A stretch of 64,000 nt of DNA, from assembly GCA_020635075.1 (NCBI GenBank), contig JACKAM010000002.1:365896-429895 (forward strand). Reading direction: 5' to 3'. The stretch's first letter is position 1. Every line of letters starts with the position of its first letter. Shown here in pieces: positions 1,215 to 15,004 of this stretch. The stretch is from Pseudobdellovibrionaceae bacterium. Its GTDB lineage: Bacteria; Bdellovibrionota; Bdellovibrionia; Bdellovibrionales; UBA1609. A program made the translations under genes and the position numbers. Below the pieces are notes generated by a model. The model ran no database searches, was not told the DNA's origin, and was given only the letters and a program-made list of their open reading frames with translations.

Positions 1215-1414
1215 CTCTTCGCCCTCTTTCCGGTTTGGAATTCAAACGTTTGTTTTAATTTACCGGAAAGCCCCCTCCCCCACAAGGACATTTTCAAACA
1301 AACGTTTGAAATTTCTCAAATGTATGTAATTACTGTATTTAATTGAATCTCAACCTGGATCGATCAGCTGCATCCAAAAAAGAACATCGGCACCCAGACT
1401 GCCAAATACATGGC

Positions 1415-2059
1415 TTAATCCGCTCCGCGCATACAGCCCCGATCTGGCTCTTCCCAAACCTCATAGTTTGGCGTTATCTCTATACCAGATTTTACTCGTC
1501 GCCCTTTGAGCGTCGTCTCTTTTGCCGGTCGCAAACAGCGAATGTCAGAAAACTTGATTCCCTTTTTGGGAAGCTCCTTTGGGAAATCAATCACGGACCC
1601 AGCTGGAATTACCCCTTCAGGCAACTTCAGATCCTCACAAAGCTTGATCTCAAAAACTTCCAGCGTCTGCGCGTGCTGACCCAAGTATTCACAGATCTTG
1701 ATGCCATTGATCGTGATGGGGCCTTTAAAGTAAACATGCCAAAGGTCAGATCGACCTTCCACCACAACACCGGCAGGGTAATTGCGCCCACCCATTTCAA
1801 CTTGAGCAGTCGTCGTTAGCCCAACATTCAGACCATCGATTGGATCCATGAGATTCAAGCGGACATCAACTTTTTGAAAATCAGTCTTGGCAAAGAAGGG
1901 GATTACCTTGAGGTTCTGATTTTGATTCTCAGACAATGATGATGTTGGATTTTTAGCAGAATCGGCCAAGCACCTCAACCCACTCAATCCAATCAGACCA
2001 AAACAGCAACTCCCCATGAATCGAATTATTAATTTCCAAAATGCATTACTATTGAGCAT
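1415..2059 (-). CDS. Secreted hypothetical protein; putative immunity protein for the orphan toxin module 2049-3737
   Basis: 214-aa ORF with a hydrophobic N-terminus. It overlaps the stop of the upstream toxin-like ORF by 11 nt. Paralogous to ORF 4605-5291 (shared GQHAQTLE[VI]FE[IL]KLCED and IP[AG]GS motifs). The immunity role is inferred from position only. Confidence 0.55.
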   Translation of the reverse strand: MLNSNAFWKLIIRFMGSCCFGLIGLSGLRCLADSAKNPTSSLSENQNQNLKVIPFFAKTDFQKVDVRLNLMDPIDGLNVGLTTTAQVEMGGRNYPAGVVVEGRSDLWHVYFKGPITINGIKICEYLGQHAQTLEVFEIKLCEDLKLPEGVIPAGSVIDFPKELPKKGIKFSDIRCLRPAKETTLKGRRVKSGIEITPNYEVWEEPDRGCMRGAD

Positions 2060-3737
2060 TAGGCACTAATCCTATATGAATATGATGATAGTGACCTTTA
2101 ATCATCTTTGTCTTGAATTTGATCGGCTGATTTCCAACACCACTATCAGGAAATGGTGTGAGATCGCACTCAACATCCGGAGTCGAAAAGTCATCAACAC
2201 ACTTTCCTATCGGCACCAAAGCACCACCTAAGCTCTCAGCCAACATTTCTTTTTGTTCAATAGTCCCCGAAAGCATGATCCTCTGCTGCCATCGCTCTCT
2301 TGCGGGAGCCACAGGAGGAGGTAAATTGGGCTGTGGTGGCGGTTTTTTGGGGCCAGGAGAAAAATATATGAAGGCTCGCGGAAACCGCTGCGTTAGATCG
2401 GTCCATTTGTGTCGATTGTACACGGTCCAGCGACTTAGGCGTATTATTGCACGTAAATTCCTGGCGGCAATTCTGCGGTTTTTCTCTAGCTCCAAATTGT
2501 AGTCAGGCACACTTACCGACGTCACACTTTGGGCAATCAACTCAGGACATACTGAAGATGTGGCCAGACAGGCTTGACGGGCGGTCTCGCTAAGTCCCTC
2601 AAGGGCTAACAAGAATTCTTTGGAATGGTCCCAATCCTTGATTCTCCTAGTAGCGTTAGGATGATCATAATAATTCTCAAAACTGCCCTTAACCTCACAT
2701 GCTGATTGCTCGTCAGGAATCGAGGGTTGACTCACGACCACAGCCTGAAATTCAAACGGGATCTGATCTCCTGAACCTACCGCGAAGGCAGAGCAATCTT
2801 GATCCGAAAAATACCTAAGATCCATGTGCTCGCCATCCTTGTGAGACATATGGGTGGTGTTCAGTGCTTCCTCCTGATAATTTACAGAAAATCTTCCCCC
2901 AAAAGGCAGAGACCCATCGTTGCACAGTGTCCTCACTCCCATGACATTGGTGAGGTAATGAACCACTTCTGCCATTTCAGATGAAACATAGCTACTCATG
3001 GAAGTACTGTAATCTCTCGTACAGCCGCCTGCAACGTAATTATGGGGCTGATTATCCTTACGTCTCAAATTGAACGAGGTCTTAAAGGTTCTTTCTAGTG
3101 GCTCGCCCGATGTAACCTTGAGTCCAGTTTCCGTTTCTGTACCCACGAAGGTGTAAGCAAACTTTAGGTCGCTGATCTTTCTGGAGTTGTGATTGGCCCA
3201 ATTATACTTTTGCGAAATGGTCGTCATCATGCCTTCAATGTGATCCTCAATGCCTCCTGACGCCAAAAGCTCAGAATAAAGAACGTCCTTCTTTTTGGCA
3301 TTCCCGGTATTTGTCGCGTGGTCTTCCCTGAGTGGCAGATCAAATTCCAATAAATCGTGGCTTTCGTTGCCAACAAAAACCCGAACGCTGTCCCAGGTCA
3401 CCTTGTCTTCATTGTATTCCGCAGTAAACGAGTACCGGGGTACAAAGCGACCACCCCTGTTTTTGTAGGTATTGGAAGTTTCAGTGCTCTGAAATAACCC
3501 TGTTAAATCCAAATCAACAGGAAACAGCCCCTCTGTTTTGCTCAAGGACCGCTGAGCATCTCCGGTTGAAGAGTAGATCTGACTGGCTTGTTGGCTGCTG
3601 GGGACCGATGGCTGATCGGCGTCTCCGTTGGTTCCTTTGTTGATTGCCGTTAACTTGATGTAGTCAACCCTGGGAAAAGAGACGTAACAATGAGCCCGAT
3701 ACTCAGTTTCCCATTGTTGAGGAGCAGTTGGTATCAT
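2049..3737 (-). CDS. Orphan toxin-like protein: homolog of the C-terminal ~600 aa of the giant ORF, with a MepA/LAS-like metallopeptidase module; no signal peptide
   Basis: 562 aa. Its N-terminus QQWETEYRAHCYVSFP aligns with HYWEALPHRMSCHISWP of the 2001-aa protein, and LFPVDLD aligns with MFPVDVD. It carries CNDGSLPFGGRF...HMSHKDGEHMDLRY and a terminal GHYHHIHIG (H..D plus HxH zinc-ligand layout). Confidence 0.7.
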   Translation of the reverse strand: MIPTAPQQWETEYRAHCYVSFPRVDYIKLTAINKGTNGDADQPSVPSSQQASQIYSSTGDAQRSLSKTEGLFPVDLDLTGLFQSTETSNTYKNRGGRFVPRYSFTAEYNEDKVTWDSVRVFVGNESHDLLEFDLPLREDHATNTGNAKKKDVLYSELLASGGIEDHIEGMMTTISQKYNWANHNSRKISDLKFAYTFVGTETETGLKVTSGEPLERTFKTSFNLRRKDNQPHNYVAGGCTRDYSTSMSSYVSSEMAEVVHYLTNVMGVRTLCNDGSLPFGGRFSVNYQEEALNTTHMSHKDGEHMDLRYFSDQDCSAFAVGSGDQIPFEFQAVVVSQPSIPDEQSACEVKGSFENYYDHPNATRRIKDWDHSKEFLLALEGLSETARQACLATSSVCPELIAQSVTSVSVPDYNLELEKNRRIAARNLRAIIRLSRWTVYNRHKWTDLTQRFPRAFIYFSPGPKKPPPQPNLPPPVAPARERWQQRIMLSGTIEQKEMLAESLGGALVPIGKCVDDFSTPDVECDLTPFPDSGVGNQPIKFKTKMIKGHYHHIHIGLVPNAQ

Positions 3738-3773
3738 CTGAAGCTGTATCTTTCCGAAGGATTGATTTAAGTG

Positions 3774-3833
3774 GAGTGACCGTCACTTTTTGGTATTGCA
3801 GTACAATACTAAAAGTTGACGGTCACCTTACTA
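3774..3833. repeat. 60-bp dyad-symmetric repeat, copy A (57/60 identical to 6327-6386)
   Basis: GAGTGACCGTCACTTTTTGGTATTGCAGTACAATACTAAAAGTTGACGGTCACCTTACTA. It contains GTGACcGTCAC and tTGACgGTCAC sites flanking an inner GTATTG-cagta-CAATAC palindrome. It lies 36 bp upstream of the ATG of ORF 2049-3737. Confidence 0.9.
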
Positions 3834-4466
3834 CAAAACATCTCGCGAAGCTTTAGTGAGGATGAAGAGGGCGGTCAAAGCAGCAACCTCGGTCAGTCCG
3901 TGGACAACGAAGACTTGGGAGCTGCCCTCCGCTACCAACCCGAAACTGAGAAGGACTGGAGCCTGGGAACGGATGCCGGTATCAAACTGGTTTCACCCCC
4001 TGATCCCTTTTTGCGCTTTCGTATGCGCCGTACCTGGTGGCCAGGAAATTGGGAAATCCGCGCCACAGAAACCGTCTTTTGGTTTAAGTCCGAAGGCTAT
4101 GGTCATACGGAATCCCTAGAGTTTGACTATCCTCTCAGCCTTTCTTTTCTGTTTCGTTTTGCCAACCAGGCCTCCTGGCGCAAAAATGATCTGGAGTACC
4201 GCTTCGACAACACCCTTAATTTGTTTCAGAGAGTGAGCGACCGCTTGGCCATTGCCTACACCGCCGGGATGCACGGCCGCGATGTTCCGGCCGTCGCCGT
4301 TGATTCCTATTCCTTTGGCGTCAACTTCCGTCGCCGCATTCACAAAGACTGGTTGTTTTTCAACATCAAACCTGGCGGCTTCTGGCCCCGTGAAGAGAAC
4401 TTCACTTATGTCGCCTCCATCAGCTTCAAACTCGAAGTCATGATCGGTCAGGGCGAAACATGGTAG
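3816..4466 (+). CDS. Hypothetical; possible 5'-truncated beta-barrel outer membrane protein remnant
   Basis: 216-aa ORF whose TTG start lies inside repeat copy A. It has no signal peptide. It shows alternating-hydrophobic strands (YSFGVNFRRRI, FTYVASISFKLEVMI) and a C-terminal aromatic residue (…GETW-stop), as in OMP barrels. Confidence 0.3.
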   Translation: MTVTLLQNISRSFSEDEEGGQSSNLGQSVDNEDLGAALRYQPETEKDWSLGTDAGIKLVSPPDPFLRFRMRRTWWPGNWEIRATETVFWFKSEGYGHTESLEFDYPLSLSFLFRFANQASWRKNDLEYRFDNTLNLFQRVSDRLAIAYTAGMHGRDVPAVAVDSYSFGVNFRRRIHKDWLFFNIKPGGFWPREENFTYVASISFKLEVMIGQGETW

Positions 4467-4604
4467 GCTGCCAACTCCGCCCTCAATTCAGCACAAGTGT
4501 TTGAGTCATTCAAACACTGTTATTTTGCCGCAGCCGACAAGCCCATTAAGCCAGTCAGAAATTCTTTAGTATAATCCCAATCCAGAATTCGCCGATACAC
4601 GTGA

Positions 4605-5291
4605 TTACTCACTTTCGGAGGTTTCCCACACTTGAACCTCACACGAAGTGATCTTGTCAGGGTCCGATGGCATTCCCGTTTCAGATCGAGGTGCAAGGAT
4701 AGAGCCCGTCAAAAAGGTGCGGCCCTTGAACTTCATACTTGCCCCAGGTGAAATACACCCTACTTCGGGCCACCTCTGACCCGCCTTAACCTTGCCGTTA
4801 ATAAAAGAGACAAAGGAACCTCCCGGTATCCTCAAACCATTGATCTCCGAATCCTCACATAGCTTGAGCTCAAAAATCTCCAGCGTCTGTGCGTGCTGGC
4901 CCAGGTTGCCACATACTTTTATAGAGTTCACTTCTACAACCATCTTCTCTCCACCCAGGCGGAAAAGAGTACCTATTCCCGATACAAATGTTCCTCGCGG
5001 ATAGGTAATACCCCCTATCTTCACAGGCTTTTTTACCCATAATTTAACAACAAAGTCTGTAGGGGATGGCCCCTCATTAAACACCTGGCTTATGTACACA
5101 TTGTCCCAAACCATATCTTTAAAGATCGGCCACTTCGATAGCTTTTCCAAATCATCCTTTAGGACAACTGGAGGACTACTCTTCATTACCTTAGGGATAT
5201 CATCGTTCGAATCTGCAATAACGGAGACCGAGACAACAATCAAACAACTTAGAAAAGCACTTCTCCAAATCATGACAGATCTCCCCCTCAA
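4605..5291 (-). CDS. Secreted hypothetical protein; putative immunity protein for the orphan module 5298-6320
   Basis: 228 aa with an N-terminal signal/TM segment (MIWRSAFLSCLIVVSVSVIADS). It starts 6 nt after the toxin-like ORF. Paralog of 1415-2059. Confidence 0.55.
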   Translation of the reverse strand: MRGRSVMIWRSAFLSCLIVVSVSVIADSNDDIPKVMKSSPPVVLKDDLEKLSKWPIFKDMVWDNVYISQVFNEGPSPTDFVVKLWVKKPVKIGGITYPRGTFVSGIGTLFRLGGEKMVVEVNSIKVCGNLGQHAQTLEIFELKLCEDSEINGLRIPGGSFVSFINGKVKAGQRWPEVGCISPGASMKFKGRTFLTGSILAPRSETGMPSDPDKITSCEVQVWETSESE

Positions 5292-5297
5292 CCAATA

Positions 5298-6320
5298 TCA
5301 CTGATAAATTCCCAAATGTAGATGATCGATATGCCCTGACGCACCATCGTTTCTCAAATTCTTATTATCTCCAGGCTCTTGGTGTAAATCACACTGGGCA
5401 TCCTCATCGCACGATCCAATTCTCACTAAACCCGAACCATCTGCAGACAGACTCAACATGTCATGGTCATCCACTGTTCCATCTAAAAATAGCTTTTTCT
5501 GCCATTCGGGGCGGCTATCAGTTTCCTTAATAAATGAAATCATCACCTGAACTTTATCAAATCTCAGACTCAACGCTGTCCACGTTCGTCTGTTATACAC
5601 GACCCATCGACTCAGTCTTTTCATCGCTGCTAGATTCCTAACGGAAATCCTTCGGTTCTTCTCTAGCTCCAGATAGTAATTGGAAACACTAGCTGGCGTG
5701 ATTTTTTGGGCAATTAGCTCGGGACAAGTCGAGGAAGTTGTCAAGCAGGTTTGACGAGCAGTCTCGCTGAGTCCCATCATGTCTGCCAGGAACTCCTTTG
5801 TATGGTCCCAGTCCTTAATCCGCCTCGATGCTTTTGGGTGATCATAGTAGTCTTCAAAACTACCTTTAGTATCACACGCGGAATGCTCATCAGGGATCAC
5901 AGGCTGATTAACATTAATCGCTCCTTGAAACTTGAACGGAATCCGATCTCCCGGATCTACCAAAAAGGCAGAGCAATCTTGATCCGAAAAGTATCTAAGA
6001 TCTATATGTTTTCCTCCATCGTGGGTACCATGTCCCAACTGAGGGATATCCAGATTAACTCGAAACTGACCACCAAAAGGCAGAGACCCATCGTTGCACA
6101 GCGTCCTCACTCCCATCACATTGGTGAGGCAATGAACGACTTCCGCCATTTCAGATGACACGTAACTACTCATCGTACCACTGTAATCATCTATGCAGCC
6201 GTTCACAACGTAATTATGGGGCTGATTATCCTTACGTCTCAAATTGAACGAAGTCTTAAAAGTTCTTTCTAGTGGCTCGCCTGAAACAACCTTGAGTCCT
6301 GTGCCGGTTTCTGTACCCAC
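5298..6320 (-). CDS. 5'-truncated orphan copy of the toxin C-terminal (MepA/LAS-like) module
   Basis: 340 aa. Nucleotide-level homology to 2440-3143 runs up to position ~6323 and then breaks into repeat copy B. The start is a GTG that corresponds to an internal Val (FVGTETETG) of the 562-aa paralog. Putative catalytic motifs are retained (GHGTHDGGKHIDLRY ... GHIDHLHLG). Confidence 0.6.
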   Translation of the reverse strand: MGTETGTGLKVVSGEPLERTFKTSFNLRRKDNQPHNYVVNGCIDDYSGTMSSYVSSEMAEVVHCLTNVMGVRTLCNDGSLPFGGQFRVNLDIPQLGHGTHDGGKHIDLRYFSDQDCSAFLVDPGDRIPFKFQGAINVNQPVIPDEHSACDTKGSFEDYYDHPKASRRIKDWDHTKEFLADMMGLSETARQTCLTTSSTCPELIAQKITPASVSNYYLELEKNRRISVRNLAAMKRLSRWVVYNRRTWTALSLRFDKVQVMISFIKETDSRPEWQKKLFLDGTVDDHDMLSLSADGSGLVRIGSCDEDAQCDLHQEPGDNKNLRNDGASGHIDHLHLGIYQ

Positions 6321-6326
6321 GAGGTA

Positions 6327-6386
6327 GAGTGACCGTCACTTTTTGGTATTGCAGTACAATACTAAATAGTGACGGTCACCTTACTA
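6327..6386. repeat. 60-bp dyad-symmetric repeat, copy B
   Basis: GAGTGACCGTCACTTTTTGGTATTGCAGTACAATACTAAATAGTGACGGTCACCTTACTA. It has two perfect GTGAC-N-GTCAC sites whose centres are 40 bp apart. It directly abuts the truncation point of ORF 5298-6320. Confidence 0.9.
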
Positions 6387-6427
6387 AAAGTATGTCTGTA
6401 TCTGGATAATTGGGATACCCCGCTGAA

Positions 6428-7768
6428 CTACTTCGTACAGTTCCCGGGTGAAAAATCCTTGTGAATGATTTTACCATTCGAAATTAACCCAAGACTTCCC
6501 TTGGGAAGGACTGTCCCTAGGATTTTAGTATCCTGATCCACATGGATACAGCGGATAGGTGGGAATCCTTGACTGATCCGTTTTTCATGACGGCCAAAAT
6601 ACAAGGTCGCCCCCTTAGGTAATTTCAATCCGTTGATTTTGGCATCCTTCATCAGTTGCAAAGAGCGAGGGTTGCCGTTGTCCACATCAAAAACCGCTGT
6701 GCCGCCAAACTCCGCACCTCCATATTTGATCGACTCGGCCCCAAACAGCACCTGTTCTTTCCCATCCGGACCCGCAACAAAAATGAGAGAGCCTTTCGGC
6801 CGTTGGAGATCATAGAACCGAAAGTCCTTTTTGACCGAAACCACATATCGGATGTCTGGAAATGAGGATCCAAGCCTTATCTTCTTAAGGGAGGAAATTT
6901 GGCTGTAGGCCAGTACATAATCCTCTGGACTTAATTCCCTCAATCCCGGGGCTTTCCGCACGGAATCGAAGTTCTTTGTTTCTCCCGCCCGCCAAAGTAG
7001 CTTTCCATTTTCATCCAAACCCTCTTTATCCGAGCTTTTACCGGTGTGGTCGCAGTTAACACATGGCGCCTCCGTCGCCGGCGGCTCCACAATGTCGGGA
7101 GGGGTGTAAAGGCAGGTGTTCTCATTAAACTCCAGCTGAAGCTTTCCCGCATCATCTATATGAACCAGTCTTCTCTTCCACACATGAGTCCCCTGGATCG
7201 TCATATCCTCCTTCCCCTGAAGGCAAACAATTGGCGGAAACTCCGAGGTTAATGGGCCCCTATGGCGCCTAAAGTTGATTGATGTCAACTTAGGCAGCCT
7301 AACTCCATTAATGACTACATCTTTCAAGGTTCTGGCTTCTCGAGGATTTCCGGTATCGATATCCATTGAGCTTACTGCTATCTCTTTTCCTTTCCACAGG
7401 GCAGCGGATTCACCAGAAATACGCATTTCTGGTCCTCCCCACACTCCACCTAGTCCAGTTATCTTTGTGCCCTTCCTGCCATGTACCTCATAGATTCGGA
7501 AGTCCTTGTTAATGATGAGTTCAAACTGAATTTGAGGAACTGCGAAGCCACTTTCCGGATCAGCTTCAAGATAATCACTAATACTCAACTCATAGTCACC
7601 AGGCTTCAACTTGTCCAATCCCGGAATACCCATCAAATATTTGATACTCCGAAGCTGCCCTTCTGTCCATGGTGTCCCCTCTGAACCACCAGGCAAGGTA
7701 ACCAATCCTTCCTGACCCCAACCTGCTGCGCTCCAGGCAATACAGAGAAGAAATATCAACGTCTTCAC
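6428..7768 (-). CDS. Secreted two-domain hypothetical protein (internal duplication of the 7818-8600 domain); putative immunity/accessory protein
   Basis: 446 aa with signal peptide MKTLIFLLCIAWSAAGWG. The first half plus the linker TPPDIVEPPATEAPCVNCD aligns with the whole 260-aa neighbour. The second half repeats the domain (KKDFRFYDL..., GFPPIRCIH). Confidence 0.65.
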   Translation of the reverse strand: MKTLIFLLCIAWSAAGWGQEGLVTLPGGSEGTPWTEGQLRSIKYLMGIPGLDKLKPGDYELSISDYLEADPESGFAVPQIQFELIINKDFRIYEVHGRKGTKITGLGGVWGGPEMRISGESAALWKGKEIAVSSMDIDTGNPREARTLKDVVINGVRLPKLTSINFRRHRGPLTSEFPPIVCLQGKEDMTIQGTHVWKRRLVHIDDAGKLQLEFNENTCLYTPPDIVEPPATEAPCVNCDHTGKSSDKEGLDENGKLLWRAGETKNFDSVRKAPGLRELSPEDYVLAYSQISSLKKIRLGSSFPDIRYVVSVKKDFRFYDLQRPKGSLIFVAGPDGKEQVLFGAESIKYGGAEFGGTAVFDVDNGNPRSLQLMKDAKINGLKLPKGATLYFGRHEKRISQGFPPIRCIHVDQDTKILGTVLPKGSLGLISNGKIIHKDFSPGNCTK

Positions 7769-7817: not shown

Positions 7818-8600
7818 CTAGTTAGATGATCCCTTTGCTGCTCCTTCACCGGCCCCGTCGCAATTAAGGCAGGGAGCCTCAGTTGCCGGCGGATCAACAA
7901 TGTCCGGGGGAGTATGAGCACATGCAGTCGAGGTAAACTCGAGAAGGGGGGCACCTTTTTCATCAAAATTCACCACCTTGCCTGCTGGTATCGTCAATCC
8001 AGCAATTGTCAGCTCTTTCTCGGCCTGGATACATACAATCGGCGGGAATCCCGCTATTAGCCTTTCACGATGACGACGAAAGTAGACTTTCGTGGACTTT
8101 GGGAGAGTTAAGTCATTAACTCTAAGTTCTGAAACCAAGCTTATCGACCTTGGTAGACCCGTATCAATATCGAAGGTTCCCACCCAAATATCAATTCCTC
8201 GCCATTTTGCTGGCCCACCTGAAAAATGAACCTGTGGACCTCCCCACCCTCCTCCTAGGCCGGTAACTACCGTCCCCCTTTTCCCATGCAAATCGTAAAA
8301 TCGGAAGTCTTTATTAATCTTAAGCTCAAATTCAAACCGAGGTACGGCGAAACCGCTCTCAGGATCAGGATCCAAATACTCACTGATAACCAATTTATAA
8401 TCACCTTGTTTTAACTTATCAAATCCAGGCACTCCCATCAGATAATCGATACTTTTTCTTTGACCAGAAGTCCATGAGGTCTCCTTAGATCCTGAAGGAA
8501 GCGTCGCAAGTTGGCCCAAAGCTTCTAAGCCACTGAATGCAAGCACAACAAACAGTGCTCCAATTGTAACCACGTAGAGCCTCCTATCTTTCCATGGCAT
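7818..8600 (-). CDS. Secreted hypothetical protein; putative cognate immunity protein of the giant toxin-like ORF
   Basis: 260 aa with a signal peptide (LYVVTIGALFVVLAFSGLEALG). Its start overlaps the stop of the 2001-aa ORF by 17 nt, which suggests translational coupling. Confidence 0.65.
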   Translation of the reverse strand: MPWKDRRLYVVTIGALFVVLAFSGLEALGQLATLPSGSKETSWTSGQRKSIDYLMGVPGFDKLKQGDYKLVISEYLDPDPESGFAVPRFEFELKINKDFRFYDLHGKRGTVVTGLGGGWGGPQVHFSGGPAKWRGIDIWVGTFDIDTGLPRSISLVSELRVNDLTLPKSTKVYFRRHRERLIAGFPPIVCIQAEKELTIAGLTIPAGKVVNFDEKGAPLLEFTSTACAHTPPDIVDPPATEAPCLNCDGAGEGAAKGSSN

Positions 8601-11600
8601 GCAGGTGGAAATGCGTTAGATGAGTCGCTGTGGGATCAAACCACACGTTTGTTTCCGACAAATCACAAGATGTCGGATTAATCTGACAGGAGGTATATGA
8701 CTGTGGACCGACAGTAAACTTGCCTATTTTACAATTCAGATCCTCCGAACAAGTTCCAATCGCTTCCATCCTCCCATCAGTGGTCTTTTCGAGAAGAGGG
8801 AAATTGTCCACTTTGCCATCAAATAACAACTTCTCCTGCCATCTTTTGAAATACGAAGGATTGCCATTTGCATACACTCCCTGGGAGACTAGGACGGCGA
8901 GGGTCTTGTCCTGGAGTACGTAACTCGACAATATACTTCTTTGATTCATCGTCCAGTGTGCAAGCCTAAAATTTGCAGCTTTGCCATTGGCAAACGCCTC
9001 CTTATCTTCCGGACTAAAATTCTGAGGAGCAACACATGCAGAATAGCTGTCCTTGCATGTTAAAAGCAAAGTCGAATTACCCGATGCATTCACCCATTGG
9101 AGGAATCTCCTCGCCAGAGGAAGATCTACTAATCTTTCCTGCGCATCATTGGCATCATAATAATCAGGAAAGCCATTTGGATATGCTGATGTTTGCTGAC
9201 AACTGCTCTTCCTTGCAAGGTGAAGATCGGCATTATCACACGTTAAATCAACATGATAACGAAAGTCCAAATGTAGCCCATTTTTGTGGGAATCATGAGC
9301 CGGAATTTTCCCGCCAAAAGGTAATGAAGCATCATTACAATAGGCCGTATGAGGATCATAGAATTTCACAGCCCTGACTATATCAATTATCGGCCTCCGG
9401 GCAAATATGGACACATTGTTTCCATACTTCCGATCACAGACACCAGGAACAAAATTAAAGGCCTTGGCAGGAGATCTCTGATGACTGGCCTTTAGAATAA
9501 AAGGATTGAGGTTAAAACTGGCTTTAAACTGAGCTCGTTGAGCTGTTGGAGTGATCAGGATCTGGTCCGTCAGAGGATCATAGACCTCCACGAAAAAATT
9601 GATTGCGAACTTGTCAGGTTGGTTCAAGGGCGCCCAGTTCAAATGCTCGGTGAGGTTTTTGACATCGACCTCAATCCGGACTTTCGTCTCGCTCCTCTTT
9701 GTTTGGCTGGGAATTTCCTCCAAGATCCTGAAATAGTACCGACGTTGAGTCGAGGTCGAAAAACCAACGAGGCCACCCACTCCGGAGACCCTAAAGCGTT
9801 GGTTGTCTCCGACAGACAGCGTGACAGTGTATTCGGGCCTCCAAGTTCCGCCGTGGTTCTCATAAAGGTTGTAGTGGGTCGATTCATCCACATCCACTGG
9901 AAACATTCCGGTTGCATAGGCGAGACTTCGCTTTGAATCCTCCACTGGTGTGTACACTGGAGTGGGAGGTGTCGTGGTGGCGGCCATTATCGTGTTTTGC
10001 GCCGATGCAGTGACGACAACCGGAGTTGTTTCCCCAATTCCATCTTCGACAGATTTGATTTCTGGATAGGGTCCGGTAGGCCAAGAGATATGGCAGCTCA
10101 TTCGGTGTGGCAATGCCTCCCAATAATGGAACCAGTCCGTCGAAAGGCTTACATATGGCCTAGGATCAAAGTTATCATTTGGATCCAAATCTACAAGATG
10201 AAGATCTTTCGGAATTTTCACTCGCCAAGTCCAGTTGAGACCCCAATCAATCACATTTTGACCTGCCTCCCCAGCTGGAGGGAACTTCACATAATCTGCC
10301 ATTTCTTCGTCACTTGAAATCCCTAGGCGGGCCCTGACATTGGCGGCACTATCATAAATGGTCTTAGTAATGGTTTCCCGCTTCACCGGATCCCAGAAAT
10401 TGACCCTGATAGGGAATACTCTGGCATCGTTACCTCTGATGGTATTGATATCCACATTTCTCCAGTACCATTGTTTGGCGTGGGTTGCGGGATCATAGTT
10501 GGGAGGGCGACACCAAAGAGCCTTACTACGCTCATACCACTGCAAGTAGGGAATATAGCCAGATAAGGATTGAAAATTACAGTTGACGATGACTTCTTCA
10601 GCAAAAGGCGGAATCTTTTTGGCATCCGTGTAACTTGGCTTAGTTGGGTCTGTCGAGACGTAGTGGTCATGATTCAAGTATGGATTACTGTGGGGCCCCA
10701 CTTGGTGAATGATACCATCGCCAGGATAAACTCGGCTTTGACAAATGTCCGTCATATTGGTGTTCATGTATTCTGGCCCAGTGATAGACTGTATGGGGAA
10801 ATCAACCGTCGGCGGAATATCGAAACCTTGGACAAGCCCCACGTTAGCCGATTTGACGGCAGTTGACCCTCGGACAACCTCTAGGACCTGATCAAAGGAG
10901 CTTGGTCGATATTCCGGCAGGGAGAACGAAAAGCTCGGCTGCCTTGAATCCAGTGCCGCAAACGAAGTTTCCTGAGCCCCGACCTTCTGCGCCAGTTGAC
11001 TCACCTCGTTACCTGGTTGATTGAAATCAATAAAGGCATAGGTACCAGGCTCTAAGTCCGCCAACTTCTCCATAGGGCCGGTCGATGGCGACGTGGTTTC
11101 AACCAGGTACTTTCCTGCTGGTAGATCCTCAAAAGAAACATTTCCAGAGACCTCGTGGCGACTCCGAACAATGGAAGTACCAAGGGCGCGAACCAGAACC
11201 TCCCGGGCATCGGGGGGTAAACCAACCGTGATTCCAGAACTTCCAACATAGTGTGGTTCTGTGGCGCCAACTACGGGAGTTCCATCAACGGCATTAGACC
11301 CATGGATTTCAAACCAATAGGTATCGGTCAAATTATCAAGTTTTGAAAGAAATTGTTGGGTATCGACAACAATCTCAGTGCCATCAATTTCAATAATATC
11401 GGTCAAATCAAGCGGAATCGGTTTTCCCATTGGCGACCAGTGAACAAATAAAATTGGCTCTTGGCTTGATGAGGGCTCAGGAAAACTCAGAGCCACTCCG
11501 TGATTGTTTCGCAGCCTGAAAGTTGGCTTTGAAGTGGGAATCACATTACCTATCGAATCCCCAACGCGGAAACAGGTTGAATGATGTGCCATAAATGAAC

Positions 11601-14589
11601 AGTCGACATCGTTGACGGCAACCACGACGGCCAAAGAAGCCGTGTCTGACTTTCCAGATGGACTGGTCATAGTAAGATCTACTTGGAACACTCCCTCGGT
11701 CTCAAAGACATGTTGACCATTTCTCAGCATACTGCTGGTTCCATCCCCAAAATCCCAGTGGGCCTGAGTGCCGTCGTCATACATCACTGAGTCATCTGAT
11801 GAAAACTCGATGATTGCCGGAATTGAATCGATATTAAGAACCTGCCCTTTGGCGAATTCTGGTCGCGGGTACTTTTTGGAGTCAATGATCGTGGGGTTTG
11901 ATACTGGAAAGGGTTCTGGTAAGACATCAACGACTTTTTCAGCCAGATACACTGCCCCTGATGAATCAGTCACCTCTAGTCTTACCGTCTTGGACCCTGG
12001 CACAGAAAAAATATGAGACGAAATTTCTCCTAAACCAGATCCACCGTCCCCGAAACTCCATTGATATGCCAGTGGCAGGCCTGTCGGGTTGTAAGTCGGA
12101 ACTGCTGAAAAGGTTGTGGTCAGTCCTGTGTACACAGCTTGAGGTGATGAAATGAAGTTAGGGACGATATCACCACCAGGCGGGTTGGGGTCCAAGACTG
12201 TGACTACTAAAAATGAGCTTGCGGTTTTCCCGTGATTGTCCGTGACCGTAAGCACAATCGAATGTGCCCCGGGTTGGTCAAATGTATCGACGTAATAGGG
12301 ACCAGTCCATACATGGCCATTTGAGTTGTCCCATCTATACTCAATTATTTCTCCATCGGGATCGTAGGAATTATAGGCGTCGACTTCGACTCGCAAAGGG
12401 GCTGTCCCCGTCGTAGGAGTTAGAGCCACAATTTCTGCAACGGGAGGCTGATTATCTAGTGGTGGTGGCGCACTGAGAACGCGGATCTCGGCTGTGTGGG
12501 TCGCGTAATTTCCTGCTTGGTCAATAACTGTGAGGCTAGGAAAATACTGGCCAGGCTCTTGGTAGGTGTGGCTTTCATAGGGGCCACTGATTGATTTCTG
12601 TCCGTCTCCCCAGCTCCAAATCCAAGTTGTCACCTGATCGTCGCTGTCCCAGGTGTAACTGCCATTAAAACTGACTTCTACCGGAGCTTGGCCTACAAGC
12701 GGTGTGGCAATAAAAAGTGGCAGAGGTGGTGTCCCCGAATAGACATTGATTTCAGTTTCAAGCCGAGTGGTGAGATTTTCTGGATTTGTGAGTGAAAGAG
12801 TGATTTTGTAAAGGCCACTTTTCGCGTAAGTATGGCTTATGCTGTGAAGGTCTGATCCAATGCCTGTTAAAACTGTACCGTCTCCCAGATCCCATTTTAG
12901 ATTAAAATCGGCAATTTGATTAAGATCAAAGGTATCAAGCCAGATTTGAATCTCTTCATTGACCGATGGCGAGTAATTGTCGAGGGCAATCGCTACGGGT
13001 AGATCGGCTGATGTGTGCTGGACATTGACGGTCTTTTTCGTCAAATACCTTTGACCCAAGACATCAAAGGCTGAGAGCTGAACTTCGTAGGGACCGGGGC
13101 CTGGGTAGGTGTGGCTTTGGTTTCGGCCTCTGGCGTAACTGTTGTCTCCGTAAAACCAGTGGAAATTGTGATACTCAATCGGAGCTGTTGTAAGGCCAAC
13201 TGAGTTATCAAACCACAACTCTAGAGGATCTGAAGGGTTGGCTTGAGCCAAAAAATCTACTTTTGCAGGGTCACCTGAAAGAACGTGGACCGTAAAGTGC
13301 TCAACTGAGGACTTTCCTTGAGCGTCCCTGACGGTGAGTCTTCCGTAATAAGATCCTGGGTAGTTAAAGGTGTGGCTTGTCATTGCCCCTTGAGTGAAAT
13401 CAATCGGATCATGGTCATCCCCAAAGGTCCATTCGACTTGGGAGATCGAATCACCTGAGTCGATGTCAAATGACTGAGAGGCGTCGAGTTGAACTGTAAA
13501 TGGACTTTGCCCCAACAACCCCGATGAAATCAAAACAGGTGTGGGAGGTACATTGGCATCAGTCTCGCCCACGACGATCTGAGTTGTCACTTCCCGCCGG
13601 GCCAAGAACTGATCTCGAAGCCTGAGCCTGACAGTGTAGGTTCCAGGCTGTGAATAGGTATGGCTCACAACTGCTTGATCAGTACCAATCACTTCAGGTG
13701 AATTATCCCCAAACCGCCAACGATAACGGATTTCATCGTTTTCTGGGTCAAAGCTCTCTGAGGCATCAAATGTCACGGTCAAGGGGGCTGGGCCACTGGC
13801 TTGATTAACCGAAATATGAGGCACTGGGGGCTGATTGGGCACAATTTCAATTTGTCTTGAAGTCGAAGTTGAAAGCCCTGAGTCGTCAGTAATGGTGAGA
13901 GTGACCTGATAAACTCCGGTGTTTTGATAATAGTGCTCCACACTGGCATATAGGTCCGTTTCATGAGGGTAGAGAGTCAGGATTTTACCTATGCCAAAAT
14001 CCCAGGTGTAGCTCACTATCTGACCCCCATCCTGGTCTTCAGCTGGCATCAAAGTGAAAAACAACGCCTTGGTCGGCACGTGATCCGTTGTCGTAACAAA
14101 AAAGATTCCGCCTCCATCAGTAGGAGGCTTTGGTTTTGGCAGCACAGTATACTCAATGGGAACCGAGGTCTGAGCGCCATCGTCGTCAGTTGCGGTTACT
14201 GTCACCACATAAACCCCTGCCACTTGCCACGAGTGCTCGGCTACAAAGCCAGTACTTGAGGTATTGTCCCCCCAGTCAAAATGCACCTCGGTTACCAAAC
14301 CATCTGGATCGGTTGAGGCCATGGCATCAAAGAGCACCACTTCATCTTCAAGGGGCTGATCGGTACTCCAGGTCAAATTCAAAATAGGTGGCTGATTGGA
14401 GTCTTCACCGTAAATGCTCACTTTAACGAAGGAACCGGGAAAGCCTTTAAGCTTTAAAGACAGTGTTGATGTGTCTTCAGTGAGGTCAATCGGTATTCGA
14501 ACTTCCTGGGTGCCGATGTTGAGGCTACCCGGAGTTAGGATCAAATTTTGATTGAGCCACACATGACCGGCATGAACGCGAGTAAACAA
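8584..14589 (-). CDS. Giant PKD-repeat exoprotein with a C-terminal MepA/LAS-like metallopeptidase module (body of a gene frameshifted at 14704-14712)
   Basis: 2001-aa ORF. It has about ten PKD-type repeats (for example APLTVTFDASESFDPENDEIRYRWRFGDNSPE..HTYSQPGTYTVRLRLRD) spanning roughly nt 11700-14340. The C-terminal ~290 aa (nt 8587-9459) read CNDASLPFGGKIPAHDSHKNGLHLDFRY ... THFHLHAMER. The annotated TTG start is probably an internal Leu codon. Confidence 0.85.
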   Translation of the reverse strand: MFTRVHAGHVWLNQNLILTPGSLNIGTQEVRIPIDLTEDTSTLSLKLKGFPGSFVKVSIYGEDSNQPPILNLTWSTDQPLEDEVVLFDAMASTDPDGLVTEVHFDWGDNTSSTGFVAEHSWQVAGVYVVTVTATDDDGAQTSVPIEYTVLPKPKPPTDGGGIFFVTTTDHVPTKALFFTLMPAEDQDGGQIVSYTWDFGIGKILTLYPHETDLYASVEHYYQNTGVYQVTLTITDDSGLSTSTSRQIEIVPNQPPVPHISVNQASGPAPLTVTFDASESFDPENDEIRYRWRFGDNSPEVIGTDQAVVSHTYSQPGTYTVRLRLRDQFLARREVTTQIVVGETDANVPPTPVLISSGLLGQSPFTVQLDASQSFDIDSGDSISQVEWTFGDDHDPIDFTQGAMTSHTFNYPGSYYGRLTVRDAQGKSSVEHFTVHVLSGDPAKVDFLAQANPSDPLELWFDNSVGLTTAPIEYHNFHWFYGDNSYARGRNQSHTYPGPGPYEVQLSAFDVLGQRYLTKKTVNVQHTSADLPVAIALDNYSPSVNEEIQIWLDTFDLNQIADFNLKWDLGDGTVLTGIGSDLHSISHTYAKSGLYKITLSLTNPENLTTRLETEINVYSGTPPLPLFIATPLVGQAPVEVSFNGSYTWDSDDQVTTWIWSWGDGQKSISGPYESHTYQEPGQYFPSLTVIDQAGNYATHTAEIRVLSAPPPLDNQPPVAEIVALTPTTGTAPLRVEVDAYNSYDPDGEIIEYRWDNSNGHVWTGPYYVDTFDQPGAHSIVLTVTDNHGKTASSFLVVTVLDPNPPGGDIVPNFISSPQAVYTGLTTTFSAVPTYNPTGLPLAYQWSFGDGGSGLGEISSHIFSVPGSKTVRLEVTDSSGAVYLAEKVVDVLPEPFPVSNPTIIDSKKYPRPEFAKGQVLNIDSIPAIIEFSSDDSVMYDDGTQAHWDFGDGTSSMLRNGQHVFETEGVFQVDLTMTSPSGKSDTASLAVVVAVNDVDCSFMAHHSTCFRVGDSIGNVIPTSKPTFRLRNNHGVALSFPEPSSSQEPILFVHWSPMGKPIPLDLTDIIEIDGTEIVVDTQQFLSKLDNLTDTYWFEIHGSNAVDGTPVVGATEPHYVGSSGITVGLPPDAREVLVRALGTSIVRSRHEVSGNVSFEDLPAGKYLVETTSPSTGPMEKLADLEPGTYAFIDFNQPGNEVSQLAQKVGAQETSFAALDSRQPSFSFSLPEYRPSSFDQVLEVVRGSTAVKSANVGLVQGFDIPPTVDFPIQSITGPEYMNTNMTDICQSRVYPGDGIIHQVGPHSNPYLNHDHYVSTDPTKPSYTDAKKIPPFAEEVIVNCNFQSLSGYIPYLQWYERSKALWCRPPNYDPATHAKQWYWRNVDINTIRGNDARVFPIRVNFWDPVKRETITKTIYDSAANVRARLGISSDEEMADYVKFPPAGEAGQNVIDWGLNWTWRVKIPKDLHLVDLDPNDNFDPRPYVSLSTDWFHYWEALPHRMSCHISWPTGPYPEIKSVEDGIGETTPVVVTASAQNTIMAATTTPPTPVYTPVEDSKRSLAYATGMFPVDVDESTHYNLYENHGGTWRPEYTVTLSVGDNQRFRVSGVGGLVGFSTSTQRRYYFRILEEIPSQTKRSETKVRIEVDVKNLTEHLNWAPLNQPDKFAINFFVEVYDPLTDQILITPTAQRAQFKASFNLNPFILKASHQRSPAKAFNFVPGVCDRKYGNNVSIFARRPIIDIVRAVKFYDPHTAYCNDASLPFGGKIPAHDSHKNGLHLDFRYHVDLTCDNADLHLARKSSCQQTSAYPNGFPDYYDANDAQERLVDLPLARRFLQWVNASGNSTLLLTCKDSYSACVAPQNFSPEDKEAFANGKAANFRLAHWTMNQRSILSSYVLQDKTLAVLVSQGVYANGNPSYFKRWQEKLLFDGKVDNFPLLEKTTDGRMEAIGTCSEDLNCKIGKFTVGPQSYTSCQINPTSCDLSETNVWFDPTATHLTHFHLHAMER

Positions 14590-14686: not shown

Positions 14687-15004
14687 TCAATAACAAGGAG
14701 ATACCCCCCCCCTAGCTAGATCAAGACTTTGCGTTTGAACGTGAGGCTTAAAGATGCGGCCATGGAAAGTCTCGGGGCCCCAGACGAGATCGAGTTCTTC
14801 AGATGAATTTTGATTGTTCGAATCACTTGGTGGTTGAACGACCGACGGACCATGCTTAAACCAGTGGCCCATCTTGGCGTAGGAAACTTCCGGGGCAAGG
14901 AACCCAAAAGCCAAGAGCACAAAAAAGGCTCTGAAGGTAATTGAAGTAACAACAAACCACCAACTACTGCTACGACCGCAAGCTCTCTCAACTCCAAACG
15001 CCAT
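14687..15004 (-). CDS. Signal-peptide-bearing N-terminal fragment of the giant exoprotein gene, separated from it by a frameshift
   Basis: The 105-aa ORF begins MAFGVERACGRSSSWWFVVTSITFRAFFVLLAFGFLAPEVSYA-K. It ends 5 codons after the G9 tract. Removing one G fuses it in frame to ORF 8584-14589. Confidence 0.7.
   Translation of the reverse strand: MAFGVERACGRSSSWWFVVTSITFRAFFVLLAFGFLAPEVSYAKMGHWFKHGPSVVQPPSDSNNQNSSEELDLVWGPETFHGRIFKPHVQTQSLDLARGGVSPCY
14704..14712 (-). repeat. Homopolymer: C9 on the plus strand, G9 on the coding strand, at the frame junction
   Basis: Counted directly: ataCCCCCCCCCtagc. Both reading frames overlap only at this tract. Confidence 0.95.

Follow-up and report, generated by a model that had tools for sequence, protein, structure and literature searches.

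Displaced tips with their own partner genes downstream of a giant gene: the probable trailing array of a rare polymorphic toxin locus

Background

Positions 1415-6389 of the window (as we call the whole 64-kb stretch of DNA that was analysed) carry, with a probability that we put at roughly three in four, the trailing array of a polymorphic toxin locus, i.e. displaced and 5'-truncated tips that are each accompanied by a partner gene of their own. The locus belongs to a Bdellovibrio-like bacterium (Bdellovibrionaceae) and its main product is a giant secreted, probably cell-wall-cutting protein. The main gene (8584-15004) encodes a Sec signal peptide, a conserved stalk of PKD repeats (~750 aa) and a strain-variable region of ~1245 aa, at the end of which lies a Zn-peptidase-like tip with motif-level kinship to the murein endopeptidase MepA. 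An earlier note had read the locus in terms of toxins and immunity proteins, and was essentially right; the reading frames it named are all present on the minus strand, among the following features.

1387..1405, minus strand: terminator-like hairpin with T-run directly 3' of the last partner gene (consensus match only)
1415..2059, minus strand: partner of orphan 1 (214 aa, signal-like N-terminus)
2049..3737, minus strand: orphan tip 1 (562 aa), with a beta-sandwich pre-tip ahead of the catalytic domain and no signal peptide
3771..3836, minus strand: copy B of the palindromic element (palindrome 3776-3826), with 92% identity to copy A
4522..4600, minus strand: third, very short tip fragment (...RRILDWDYTKEFLTGLMGLSAAAK, then stop), corresponding to about residues 364-403 of the 562-aa orphan
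4605..5291, minus strand: partner of orphan 2 (228 aa, signal peptide)
5298..6320, minus strand: orphan tip 2 (340 aa from GTG), catalytic domain only, without signal peptide
6324..6389, minus strand: palindromic element copy A (TAGTAAG, 51-nt palindrome 6329-6379, TCTACC)
6428..7768, minus strand: partner 2 of the main gene (446 aa, signal peptide), two tandem partner-type domains
7818..8600, minus strand: partner 1 of the main gene (260 aa, signal peptide), overlapping the main-gene stop by 17 nt
8584..14589, minus strand: main gene body (2001-aa ORF) with PKD-repeat stalk, variable C-terminal region and MepA-like tip (Pfam, translation, family profile)
12317..12330, minus strand: junction of constant and strain-variable parts, at about residue 756 and within a PKD repeat (DNA and amino acid alignments)
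14687..15004, minus strand: 5' ORF (105 aa) with signal peptide and N-terminus of the main gene, 67% identical to P0007 residues 1-99
14704..14712, minus strand: homopolymer G9 (C9 on the plus strand), cause of the frame break (DNA alignment with L010)

Results

Main gene

The 105-aa 5' ORF, with its hydrophobic core at residues 26-37, and the 2001-aa ORF lie in different reading frames according to the DNA alignment. In the relative L010 (MAG contig JAGRAD010000020.1, Bdellovibrionales) the same tract is G8 and the main gene is in frame. The G9 tract is the sole 9-mer C/G run of its kind in the window, and the break may reflect sequencing error or phase variation alike; as it stands, it splits the signal peptide from a frame-broken main gene, which weighs against the toxin-locus reading, as does the fact that no outer-membrane export route is evident near the locus. 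The 2001-aa ORF comprises 10 PKD stretches (Pfam) and its translation displays the tip motif HDSHKNGLHLDFRY...HLTHFHLH. DNA homology to L010 (92%), L017 (88%) and L018 stops at 12317-12324, and amino acid identity to P0007, which is 88-100% up to about residue 756, falls to ~25% beyond. The orphans cover just the last 562 and 340 aa of a variable part of this type.

Truncated tips and their full-length relatives

The 562-aa ORF aligns with the giant protein from its residue 9 onward, as had been claimed, although the match (residues 1490-1952, 23% identity, E 1e-27) extends over the last ~510 aa and not ~600. The 340-aa ORF is indeed a further-truncated copy, with 59% identity to residues 198-557 of the 562-aa ORF (E 4e-143) and 26% to the giant protein (E 5e-23); the related tip in L019 reaches ~200 aa further upstream. 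The DNA identity of about 90% between the orphans did not hold, as 2416-3148 and 5593-6322 are 74.8% identical and just the first 240 nt reach ~88%. In keeping with the earlier note, the tips diverge most towards their C-termini (87% amino acid identity in the first 90 residues, ~30% in the last 120), and both orphans retain every invariant position of a 17-member family alignment, putative catalytic residues included (N76 D77 P81 H97 H100 G103 D107 W273 G281 H330 H333, numbered as in the 340-aa ORF). Neither has a hydrophobic, signal-like N-terminus; devoid of both stalk and signal peptide, they are therefore not exported as they stand.

That the short ORFs are truncations is seen in L010, whose full-length main gene (at least 1761 aa) is 88-100% identical to that of the window over its N-terminal ~750 aa and runs in frame into the first 137 codons of orphan 1 at ~97% nucleotide identity (11 substitutions from the right edge of the element onward), a match that extends as far as the contig end. 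Thus the strain comparison proposed earlier revealed a swapped tip, the orphan 1 sequence being carried by a relative's main gene. At the protein level, orphan 1 is 96.7% identical to P0007 residues 1611-1761, and the tip of P0003 (1697 aa) is 47% identical to it across all 562 aa. Since the L010 main gene reads through the ATG of orphan 1 as an internal Met, short ORFs that would be full-length, independently exported proteins in relatives are excluded.

The organisation of a main gene plus displaced tips, as proposed earlier, recurs: main gene, partner, truncated tip(s) and partner(s) follow each other in this order in at least five other assemblies (L011, L016/17/18, L012/13, L001/14, L020-25), and L016 harbours three truncated tips in succession, along with partners of three kinds and an IS-type transposase. 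All of these relatives are metagenome assemblies, which counts against our reading. So does an unexplained ORF on the opposite strand (3816-4466) between the two orphan modules, and the array is therefore not one simple operon. The third tip fragment, with tblastn matches at 4475-4618 (at most 70% identity to P0002), shares ~78-80% nucleotide identity with the same segment in L001 and L016-18.

Partner genes

Throughout the family, partner genes lie directly 3' of a tip, overlapping it or only a few bases away; the earlier description of an 11-nt overlap (2049-2059) and a 6-nt gap (5292-5297) at the two orphans is correct. The orphan partners are paralogous (38% identity, E 3e-24), with hydrophobic signal-like N-termini, and differ from those of the main gene, yet they are not unrelated to them: the 228-aa protein is similar to either half of the 446-aa protein (E 4e-8 and 1e-4), and all four are distant homologues of each other. 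In the 446-aa protein the 260-aa type is duplicated in tandem, the two halves being 55% and 34% identical to the 260-aa protein. Together the partners represent a novel beta-rich family with only nine database members. In L012, P0154 (74% identical to the 228-aa partner) lies behind a truncated tip of 67% identity, and fragments 76-83% identical to the 214-aa partner of orphan 1 occur in L022 and L024. As had been suggested, tips and partners diverge in step, partner identity tracking that of the last 175 tip residues (Spearman 0.90, 15 module pairs). Shared history of linked genes alone would predict such co-divergence, a point held against the main reading.

Tip family and candidate chemistry

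An exhaustive profile search among 1.84 billion proteins retrieved only 30 family members, most of them giant proteins (1400-1900 aa) that combine signal peptide and PKD repeats with a C-terminal tip. The sole PDB match of the profile is MepA (1tzp/1u10; penicillin-insensitive murein endopeptidase, an M74, LAS-type Zn peptidase) at E 0.014, through the motif ND.S.P.GG.F...H.SH..G...D, so that the pattern D-x-S-x-P-x-G-G-x-F-x(2,n)-H-x-S-H-x-x-G-x-x-x-D aligns. The residues of H..H..G...D and of the C-terminal H-x-x-H-x-H (H..H.H) are invariant in the tip family, and Peptidase_M74 is the sole recurrent Pfam family (5 of 21 members match, best E 3.9e-5). In contrast to MepA, the tip domain forms the end of a ~2000-aa protein and has a helical insertion of ~110 residues between the motif halves. 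Two results count against our reading: all M74 matches of individually scanned full-length members stay below the gathering score, and Foldseek searches with a confidently modelled catalytic domain (pLDDT 82.5) gave no match in PDB (best E 2.3) or BFVD. The likeness to MepA is thus one of motif, and it suggests that the tips may cleave peptidoglycan.

Such chemistry would equally suit giants that serve in predation or cell-wall remodelling, with the partners as inhibitors for self-protection and the short ORFs as decaying tandem paralogues. The source is annotated as Bdellovibrionaceae or Bdellovibrionales, and in B. bacteriovorus self-protection from its own peptidoglycan endopeptidases is documented (PMC4686830), the Bd3459/Bd3460 pair providing a precedent for this logic. 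We nevertheless regard this view as unlikely: the sharp junction, with ~25% identity beyond it in otherwise near-identical genes, the cognate, co-diverging partners and the retained partner genes of the orphans are the signature of conflict between close relatives, unlike that of a housekeeping predation enzyme. Warfare and predation would involve the same biochemistry and are not mutually exclusive.

Are the orphans redeployed or expressed on their own?

Neither orphan ORF is interrupted, every invariant residue is present and dN/dS against relatives is 0.15-0.22, a sign of selection that also counts in favour of the main reading. Such features would be expected of a silent reservoir from which new tips recombine back onto the main gene. 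Fusion of this kind was shown for orphan rhs-CT of Salmonella and forms part of a published model (PMC4927057, PMC4436062). Here, a tip segment of ~120 nt (RRI.DWD.TKEFL...), with 78-80% DNA identity among otherwise divergent tips and recurring as a fragment left 3' of partner genes, likewise speaks for a reservoir. However, neither orphan matches the resident main gene in blastn; this also weighs against the main reading, and because of it redeployment by homologous recombination is unsupported in this genome. Moreover, ~2.2 kb (~730 codons) separate the end of the constant region, at ~12320, from the more downstream equivalent of the orphan 1 start (residue ~1490, ~10120), and a simple fusion would remove ~700 aa of the variable region. 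A reservoir function is thus distinctly improbable.

It is harder still to believe that the short ORFs are functional stand-alone genes with promoters of their own, whose products are cytoplasmic or exported by another route. Open frames and conserved catalytic residues would fit, as would a promoter-like hexamer pair at the same position in both (6242-6213 and 3068-3039; 10 of 12 matches) and a 291-aa product from an ATG at 6173 in the source annotation of orphan 2 (P0004). Yet promoter-like sites are not in excess (11 found, 10.3 expected from shuffled sequence), the truncation points vary among assemblies (562, 340, 192, 113 and ~60 aa), and the missing signal peptides and the internal position of the orphan 1 start in L010 speak against it as well.

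Palindromic element at the module joints

A 64-nt palindromic element is located directly upstream of each of the two orphans, and these are its only two copies in the window. Copy A (RNA fold -33.2 kcal/mol, z -5.5) is separated by 38 nt from the preceding stop codon of the 446-aa gene and directly adjoins the 340-aa orphan at its first codon; the right edge of copy B is the exact point where homology to the L010 main gene begins. The element was also found at module junctions of related assemblies, its orientation relative to the genes being constant in all 12 copies seen, and a related half-motif is scattered between the genes of Pseudobdellovibrionaceae MAGs, where 40 kb of the loci analysed contain 11 copies. 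The repeat could mislead assemblers on the order of modules, which is counted against our reading. That strain variants of one tip region were merely joined in tandem at this repeat during assembly deserves hardly any credence, even though all data stem from MAGs or metagenome contigs and one MAG has the same 100-nt partner 3' end and element with two right flanks (contigs L001 and L012), given that the window sits within a contig of 1,005,854 bp, a segment swap at the two copies would still leave a truncated tip after each, repeat-free arrays exist (L011, L020, L022-25) and the junctions of L016, L017 and L018 are identical across three independent assemblies.

Discussion

The locus resembles cdiBAI in its large secreted protein with conserved N-terminal part and strain-variable C-terminal end, and in the cognate protector gene directly 3'. 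Like orphan cdiA-CT/cdiI pairs, displaced 5'-truncated tips and protectors follow further downstream in the same orientation, arrays of relatives (here L016) include broken-up pairs and a transposase, and another strain carries the same tip as part of its main gene (PMC4927057, PMC4436062). By contrast, there is no CdiB/two-partner secretion gene, haemagglutinin repeat or VENN motif at this locus, a Sec signal peptide is followed by a stalk of PKD repeats, the strain-variable region spans ~1245 aa instead of the 100-300 aa of CdiA, and the partners bear signal peptides for secretion, while CDI protectors are cytoplasmic. Unlike many cdi and rhs orphans, those described here share no DNA homology with the main gene of their own locus. 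Main gene, displaced tips and an orphan tip fused to a full-length gene in another genome are shared with orphan rhs-CT/rhsI, but Pfam detects neither YD/RHS repeats nor a PxxxxDPxGL demarcation, and type VI secretion genes were not found among the neighbours scanned. Islands of MafB/MafI in Neisseria likewise combine a Sec-dependent toxin with N-terminal signal peptide and many orphan CT and immunity cassettes downstream (PMC4436062), whereas the MafB proteins are unrelated, small, without PKD stalk and mostly equipped with nuclease or deaminase domains.

A putative cell-wall hydrolase next to the gene of an inhibitor with signal peptide is also reminiscent of peptidoglycan hydrolases that act in the periplasm and are paired with periplasmic immunity proteins, such as type VI Tse/Tsi-type pairs and Bd3459/Bd3460. 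The protein families differ, Bd3460 being an ankyrin-repeat protein and the partners here beta-rich, and for neither kind of pair are orphan arrays described in the literature compared. The element, finally, recalls GTAG-tagged REPs and REPINs (family definition in PMC3733652) in being a short palindrome whose arms each bear an outward (G)TAG tag, in having two inverted halves that form one long hairpin and in lying downstream of coding regions, but differs in being present in two copies only in the 64-kb window and in its constant orientation to genes.

The displacement model published for cdi and rhs loci (PMC4927057, PMC4436062) would account for the array. Motif, position, signal peptides and co-divergence point to toxin and immunity roles, in which the periplasmic partners encoded directly 3' would be the likely cognate inhibitors (immunity proteins) and may neutralise the tips. 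The short ORFs are displaced 3' ends of alternative versions of the main gene with their own partner gene still attached, an incoming module having presumably been placed in front of the older one at the element joint; the REP-like element coincides with each truncation point, marks the joint and may have caused it. Of each displaced module, it is probably the partner gene that stays in use, where it would guard against neighbours whose main gene carries the tip in question. The layout of displaced tips is known from other bacterial warfare toxins, and here it is met in a family that is very rare and undescribed.

Organization of the locus

All relevant genes of the locus are carried on the minus strand. 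They comprise a main gene for a giant protein, two shorter ORFs (orphans 2 and 1) that correspond to the C-terminal end, or tip, of such giants, and signal-peptide proteins encoded 3' of the tips, to which we refer as partners.

Features of the locus (window positions, strand, feature)
15004-14687, minus, signal-peptide ORF of 105 aa (ORF call)
14589-8584, minus, main-gene body, 2001-aa ORF with ten PKD stretches (Pfam)
8600-7818, minus, signal-peptide partner of 260 aa
7768-6428, minus, signal-peptide partner of 446 aa
6320-5298, minus, orphan 2, 340-aa ORF
5291-4605, minus, signal-peptide partner of orphan 2, 228 aa
3816-4466, plus, opposite-strand ORF in the ~770-nt stretch between the modules
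3737-2049, minus, orphan 1, 562-aa ORF
2059-1415, minus, signal-peptide partner of orphan 1, 214 aa
1405-1387, minus, terminator-like hairpin

The relationships proposed in the earlier note were largely recovered, with corrections to their extent. Orphan 1 aligns with residues 1490-1952 of the giant (23% identity, E 1e-27), i.e. with its last ~510 aa and not the last ~600 aa. Orphan 2 matches residues 198-557 of the 562-aa ORF (59% identity, E 4e-143) and, more distantly, the giant (26% identity, E 5e-23). At the DNA level the two orphans had been judged ~90% identical by eye, but the measured value is 74.8% (2416-3148 against 5593-6322), and ~88% is attained in the first 240 nt only. The orphan partners are paralogous, as claimed (38% identical, E 3e-24); they had also been said to differ from the main-gene partners, of which they are in fact distant homologues. 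Indeed, the 228-aa partner matches the 446-aa protein in both halves (E 4e-8 and 1e-4), the latter being a tandem duplication of the 260-aa partner type. Each of the four partners, like the 105-aa ORF, begins with a hydrophobic signal-like N-terminus; neither orphan has one. A third tip remnant of ~26 codons (4600-4522, minus strand; RRILDWDYTKEFLTGLMGLSAAAK, then a stop) lies directly 3' of the 228-aa partner gene, and its conserved tip segment (78-80% nucleotide identity) recurs as a remnant 3' of partner genes in three related loci from other assemblies (L016, L017, L018).

Searches of the three tips, the four partners and the plus-strand ORF against Pfam, NCBIfam and PHROGs yielded almost nothing. 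The exceptions are weak matches to the Pfam conjugative-transposon family TraM, just over threshold across 45 residues of the 228-aa partner (28.3 bits) and fainter in the 446-aa partner. The plus-strand ORF (up to 216 aa, C-terminal end ...GQGETW) begins its open frame within copy B of the palindromic element described below, has a GC content of 0.51 versus 0.45-0.46 in the modules, and is followed by a hairpin with a 10-bp stem and a T-run (4496-4518). It has no match in the three family databases and no homologue among the related loci; the genes flanking the array of locus L012 were considered as relatives and show no homology. Identical promoter-like hexamer pairs (TTGAGA, 18-nt spacer, CATAAT) occupy equivalent positions in both orphans (6213-6242 and 3039-3068, minus strand), one of them ~40 nt 5' of the ATG at 6173, where the 291-aa product of the source annotation starts; the frequency of such sites does not exceed that in shuffled sequence. 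No tRNA genes were detected in the window.

The region 5' of the main gene encodes a four-helix protein of the 23S-rRNA-intervening-sequence (IVP) type (15335-15652, minus strand), odd low-complexity ORFs (15693-16115) and a 497-aa protein whose C-terminal part has an HNH nuclease motif (16094-17587, plus strand), and also includes menaquinone and shikimate genes. The upstream neighbours scanned contain no secretion system. A second giant paralogue (P0033) is encoded outside the window on the same contig of 1,005,854 bp. The first ~120 aa of its N-terminus are ~90% identical to the main gene of the window, and its MepA-like tip is different. It is annotated as 'partial' and starts after the signal-peptide region, as does the gene in the window.

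The orphans are truncated ends of long genes

An exhaustive profile search, seeded with the three tips of the window and one relative, found 30 proteins of the tip family among 1.84 billion representatives. Most of these are giant proteins (1400-1900 aa) that combine a signal peptide and PKD repeats with a tip at the extreme C-terminus. The most informative is P0007, the product of the main gene on contig L010 of a Bdellovibrionales MAG (GCA_020435105.1). P0007 matches the start of orphan 1 over its last 151 residues (96.7% identity), and the match includes the 14 codons 5' of the orphan's ATG. The corresponding DNA match starts exactly at the right edge of the palindromic element (window ~3771-3775) and extends to the end of contig L010, with 11 substitutions in 137 codons. 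Because the sequence of P0007 and L010 is continuous across this ATG, the start codon of orphan 1 is an internal Met of a long gene in the relative. The comparison of strains for swapped tips at the main gene, which the earlier note had suggested, thus gave a positive case: the main gene of L010 carries the tip sequence of orphan 1. It likewise excludes that the short ORFs exist in relatives as full-length proteins exported on their own.

Other relatives lend further support. The tip of a 1697-aa protein (P0003) is 47% identical to orphan 1 across all 562 residues, and relatives of orphan 2 extend it by ~200 aa on the upstream side (L019). DNA homology of the two orphans ends at 6322, two bases from copy A of the palindrome (6324-6389); the equivalent position in orphan 1, 3148, lies 620 nt within the 562-aa ORF. 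Truncation points vary widely between loci, as is expected of displacement or decay and not of stand-alone genes. The dN/dS ratios of 0.15-0.22 show that most of the divergence arose under purifying selection, which could date from the time when the tips still sat on main genes.

A sharp junction within the main gene

The main gene is 88-100% identical to P0007 and to the giant gene of L017 up to about residue 756, after which identity drops to ~25%. At the DNA level, homology to L010 (92%), L017 (88%) and L018 stops at 12317-12324 in all three. The junction (~12317-12330) lies inside a PKD repeat, just 3' of ...DPDGEIIEYRW, and is shared by these loci within a few bases; neither a VENN-like motif nor any other motif or element was found in the junction region. 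It follows from this sharp break near 12320 that the strain-variable region comprises ~1245 aa and is far longer than a 'tip'. Of this region, the orphans cover just the final 562 and 340 aa.

For cdi and rhs loci, displaced modules have been discussed as a reservoir for homologous recombination (PMC4927057). Here, a self-blastn of positions 1-15200 revealed no similarity between main gene and orphans, whose proteins are 23-26% identical to it. This lack of DNA similarity favours a reading of the orphans as fossil tips with a retained protector over a reservoir for recombination, which we hold to be less likely.

The 5' end of the main gene contains a G9 homopolymer (14704-14712; C9 on the plus strand), which puts the signal-peptide ORF (14687-15004) out of frame with the body (8584-14589). 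In L010 the tract is G8 and the frame is single and continuous. The ninth G is either a homopolymer sequencing error or a slipped-strand (phase-variation) switch; in the latter case, the G8/G9 tract might possibly switch toxin export on and off.

Recurrence of the modules in other assemblies

A word-indexed search of a 5.8-billion set returned nine matches to the partners, and the contigs that carry them repeat the same gene grammar, in the following orders:

Gene order in related loci
L016, L017, L018: giant, partner, 113-aa tip fragment, palindrome, longer truncated tip
L016:2195-9265 (MAG GCA_020434765.1), a longer array: ~576-aa truncated tip (P0015-like, N gap inside), paralogous 217-aa and 222-aa signal-peptide partners (other family), IS-type transposase (opposite strand), 396-aa truncated tip (P0016), 448-aa signal-peptide protein
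L012, L013: palindrome, 192-aa truncated tip, partner, tip fragment, palindrome
L001, L014: tip, partner, palindrome, 190-nt tip fragment, palindrome
L011: 1955-aa giant, 202-aa partner (other family), 440-aa truncated tip; palindrome absent
L020, L022-25: densely arrayed partner genes and truncated tips; palindrome absent

The tip of L012 and L013 is 67% identical to orphan 2 and their partner 74% identical to the 228-aa protein. The 190-nt fragment of L001 and L014 shares 83% amino-acid identity with residues 117-188 of orphan 1.

A palindromic element at the joints

A 64-nt unit occurs exactly twice in the window, as copy A (6324-6389) upstream of orphan 2 and copy B (3771-3836) upstream of orphan 1. 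The copies are 92% identical, and none would be expected by chance. The unit consists of TAGTAAG, a 51-nt near-perfect palindrome (GTGACCGTCAC-N29-GTGACGGTCAC) and TCTACC. Its predicted RNA fold has an energy of -33 kcal/mol (z -5.5), and its left end provides stop codons in two frames. Ten further copies were found in related loci. In all 12, the orientation relative to the genes is constant, and in all ten copies from related loci the ends of the element are sharp, with unrelated flanks beyond. In the loci fetched, the element follows a partner gene at a distance of 10-40 nt, follows a short tip fragment, or abuts a truncated tip with its right side, and truncated tips of differing break points adjoin this right edge. 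Furthermore, an identical left flank (100 nt, the 3' end of the P0151 partner gene) is joined to two different right flanks (L012:1-170 versus L001:1730-1900, the latter in L001/L014), and one right flank is joined through the element to two left flanks (L012 versus L013:36-535). Such switching of flanks represents either real rearrangement or branching of the assembly graph at a repeat. In one copy (L001:2122-2172, L014:1735-1785) the inner palindrome is inverted relative to the asymmetric flanks (GTATTGCAGTACAATAC for GTATTGTACTGCAATAC), which is the expected product of hairpin-mediated strand switching.

The closest likeness is to REP sequences, short palindromes with a GTAG-type tag whose inverted dimers (REPINs) form a larger hairpin (PMC3733652). 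The element reads (G/T)TAGTAAG-GTGACCGTCAC...GTGACGGTCAC-TCTAC(C); its right end, when reverse-complemented, gives GGTAGAG. On the outer side, each arm has a (G)TAG tag, which fits GTAG-tagged REP dimers (PMC3733652). A related half-motif, GGTGACCGTCACTTTTTAGTATTGCGATTGGTCAC, is dispersed between genes in Pseudobdellovibrionaceae MAGs (11 copies within the 40 kb of loci that were fetched) and looks like a lineage-wide REP family. It occurs with up to 4 copies in 8 kb in L003, L004, L006, L007 and L009 (CAZZCP01, JAUVAX01), and no toxin or partner genes were found near it in these five loci. Of the complete element, the 64-kb window has only the two copies, both at orphan junctions. In our view the element is REP-like; in this lineage it marks the joints, whose formation it may have promoted.

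A stronger reading would make the 64-nt palindrome the joint of a dedicated mechanism that captures and reshuffles tip and immunity cassettes in these relatives of predatory bacteria. It would then be comparable in function to integron attC sites or RAYT-mobilised REPINs, and neither a passive terminator nor a chance REP insertion. This reading draws on the sharp boundaries, the constant orientation (12/12), the varied tip breaks at the right edge and the switching of flanks. We regard a dedicated cassette mechanism as unlikely. Arrays without the palindrome exist (L011, L020, L022-25), so the system does not always include it.

Identity with attC itself was rejected, the ends lacking R boxes (no GTTRRRY), and a Pfam scan of the eight ORFs at 15.3-26.7 kb revealed no integrase. 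A CRISPR-like or tandem-repeat nature does not suit just two copies 2.5 kb apart. Rfam gave no match at the gathering threshold in the whole window, and at an E-value threshold in 3700-6450 the palindrome received sub-threshold miRNA-hairpin matches only. A pattern scan for the element gave no hits in JGI metagenome contigs or in viral contigs. Matches from a genome scan in Lachnospiraceae and Ruthenibacterium lack the palindrome and look like chance.

Predicted function of tips and partners

Eleven positions are invariant in the family alignment (N76, D77, P81, H97, H100, G103, D107, W273, G281, H330 and H333 in the numbering of the 340-aa ORF) and H335 is nearly so; orphans 1 and 2 keep every invariant residue. 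H100-x6-D107 and H333-x-H335, together with H97 and H330, are invariant or nearly so and correspond to the Zn-binding/catalytic signature of M74 and LAS Zn-peptidases, an H-x(3-6)-D motif and a C-terminal H-x-H on beta-strands. In PDB the family profile matches a single protein, the murein endopeptidase MepA (1tzp/1u10), with an E of 0.014 over the segment ND.S.P.GG.F...H.SH..G...D. Similarly, Peptidase_M74 is the only Pfam family matched repeatedly, namely by 5 of the 21 trimmed members (best E 3.9e-5). Among the full-length relatives scanned individually, no match to M74 exceeds the curated threshold (at most 19.7 bits, cut-off 25), and the three tips of the window have no Pfam match.

AlphaFold models of the 562-aa and 340-aa ORFs are fairly confident (pLDDT 76.8 and 82.5). 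In these models, D107 and H333-H335 fall on predicted beta-strands that a long helical insert separates. Foldseek searches of the catalytic-domain model against PDB and BFVD gave no significant neighbour; such a search may miss a core that is small and interrupted by a large helical insert, as modelled here. The full 562-aa model yielded only Ig-like matches (Kir channel C-terminal domain) to its N-terminal beta-sandwich (E ~1e-3). Two further searches gave chance matches only: phmmer of the 562-aa ORF against PDB sequences, and a profile of the C-terminal 42 residues against PDB, which retrieved beta-lactamases and not MepA. Our working assignment, which we hold to be somewhat probable and which falls short of established family membership, is that the tip is a Zn-dependent peptidoglycan peptidase of the LAS/MepA type.

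Partner genes are always immediately 3' of tips, with stop and start codons overlapping or nearly abutting, and tip (last 175 residues) and partner co-diverge (Spearman 0.90 across 15 non-independent module pairs). The signal peptides would put the partners where the substrate is. Position, signal peptides and co-divergence indirectly suggest that they are putative periplasmic inhibitors.

Comparison with known toxin systems

Polymorphic toxin systems (sensu Zhang/Aravind; Jamet & Nassif) have been characterized by a set of criteria (PMC4436062), most of which find a counterpart here. A secreted multidomain protein is encoded, since the signal-peptide ORF is continuous with the body in relatives and ten PKD stretches follow, the frame being broken at G9 in the window. 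The same N-terminal region is combined with different C-terminal regions in related strains, and orphan modules without a trafficking part each possess a putative cognate immunity gene. An immunity gene is typically located immediately downstream; the partners fit in position, signal peptide and co-divergence, and neutralisation of the toxin is predicted. A homologous region for recombination between main gene and orphans, frequent but not obligatory in such systems (PMC4436062), is lacking within 1-15200.

Unlike CDI systems, the locus has no CdiB/TPS gene among the neighbours scanned, no haemagglutinin-type repeats and no VENN or ELYN demarcation motif. Unlike Rhs toxins, the main protein has no RHS or YD match in Pfam, where only PKD-type domains were detected, and no PxxxxDPxGL core end. 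The earlier note had proposed a main gene with displaced tips in an unrelated toxin family; this arrangement is real and its interpretation is supported. The evidence supports a locus of polymorphic toxin type, of predicted function, with two displaced modules of truncated tip and partner and without relationship to CdiA, Rhs or MafB. It is distinguished by a PKD stalk behind a Sec signal peptide, a very long variable region whose junction falls within a PKD repeat, partners that are secreted and belong to a novel family, the fact that both families are extremely rare, and the palindrome at the joints.

The tip family has not been described previously and is very rare, with 30 representatives in 1.84 billion and nine partner relatives. 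The tip is probably peptidoglycan-cleaving and paired with periplasmic partners, and tip and partner offer a tractable pair for a new hydrolase-inhibitor interaction. As the palindrome coincides with every truncation point in several assemblies, cassette exchange becomes testable. The locus also allows one to ask whether predators compete with their own kin. Finally, the presence of a main gene with displaced tips in a family unrelated to CdiA, Rhs and MafB, in Bdellovibrio-like hosts, suggests that this architecture is a general outcome of toxin-immunity arms races and therefore no peculiarity of a few secretion systems.
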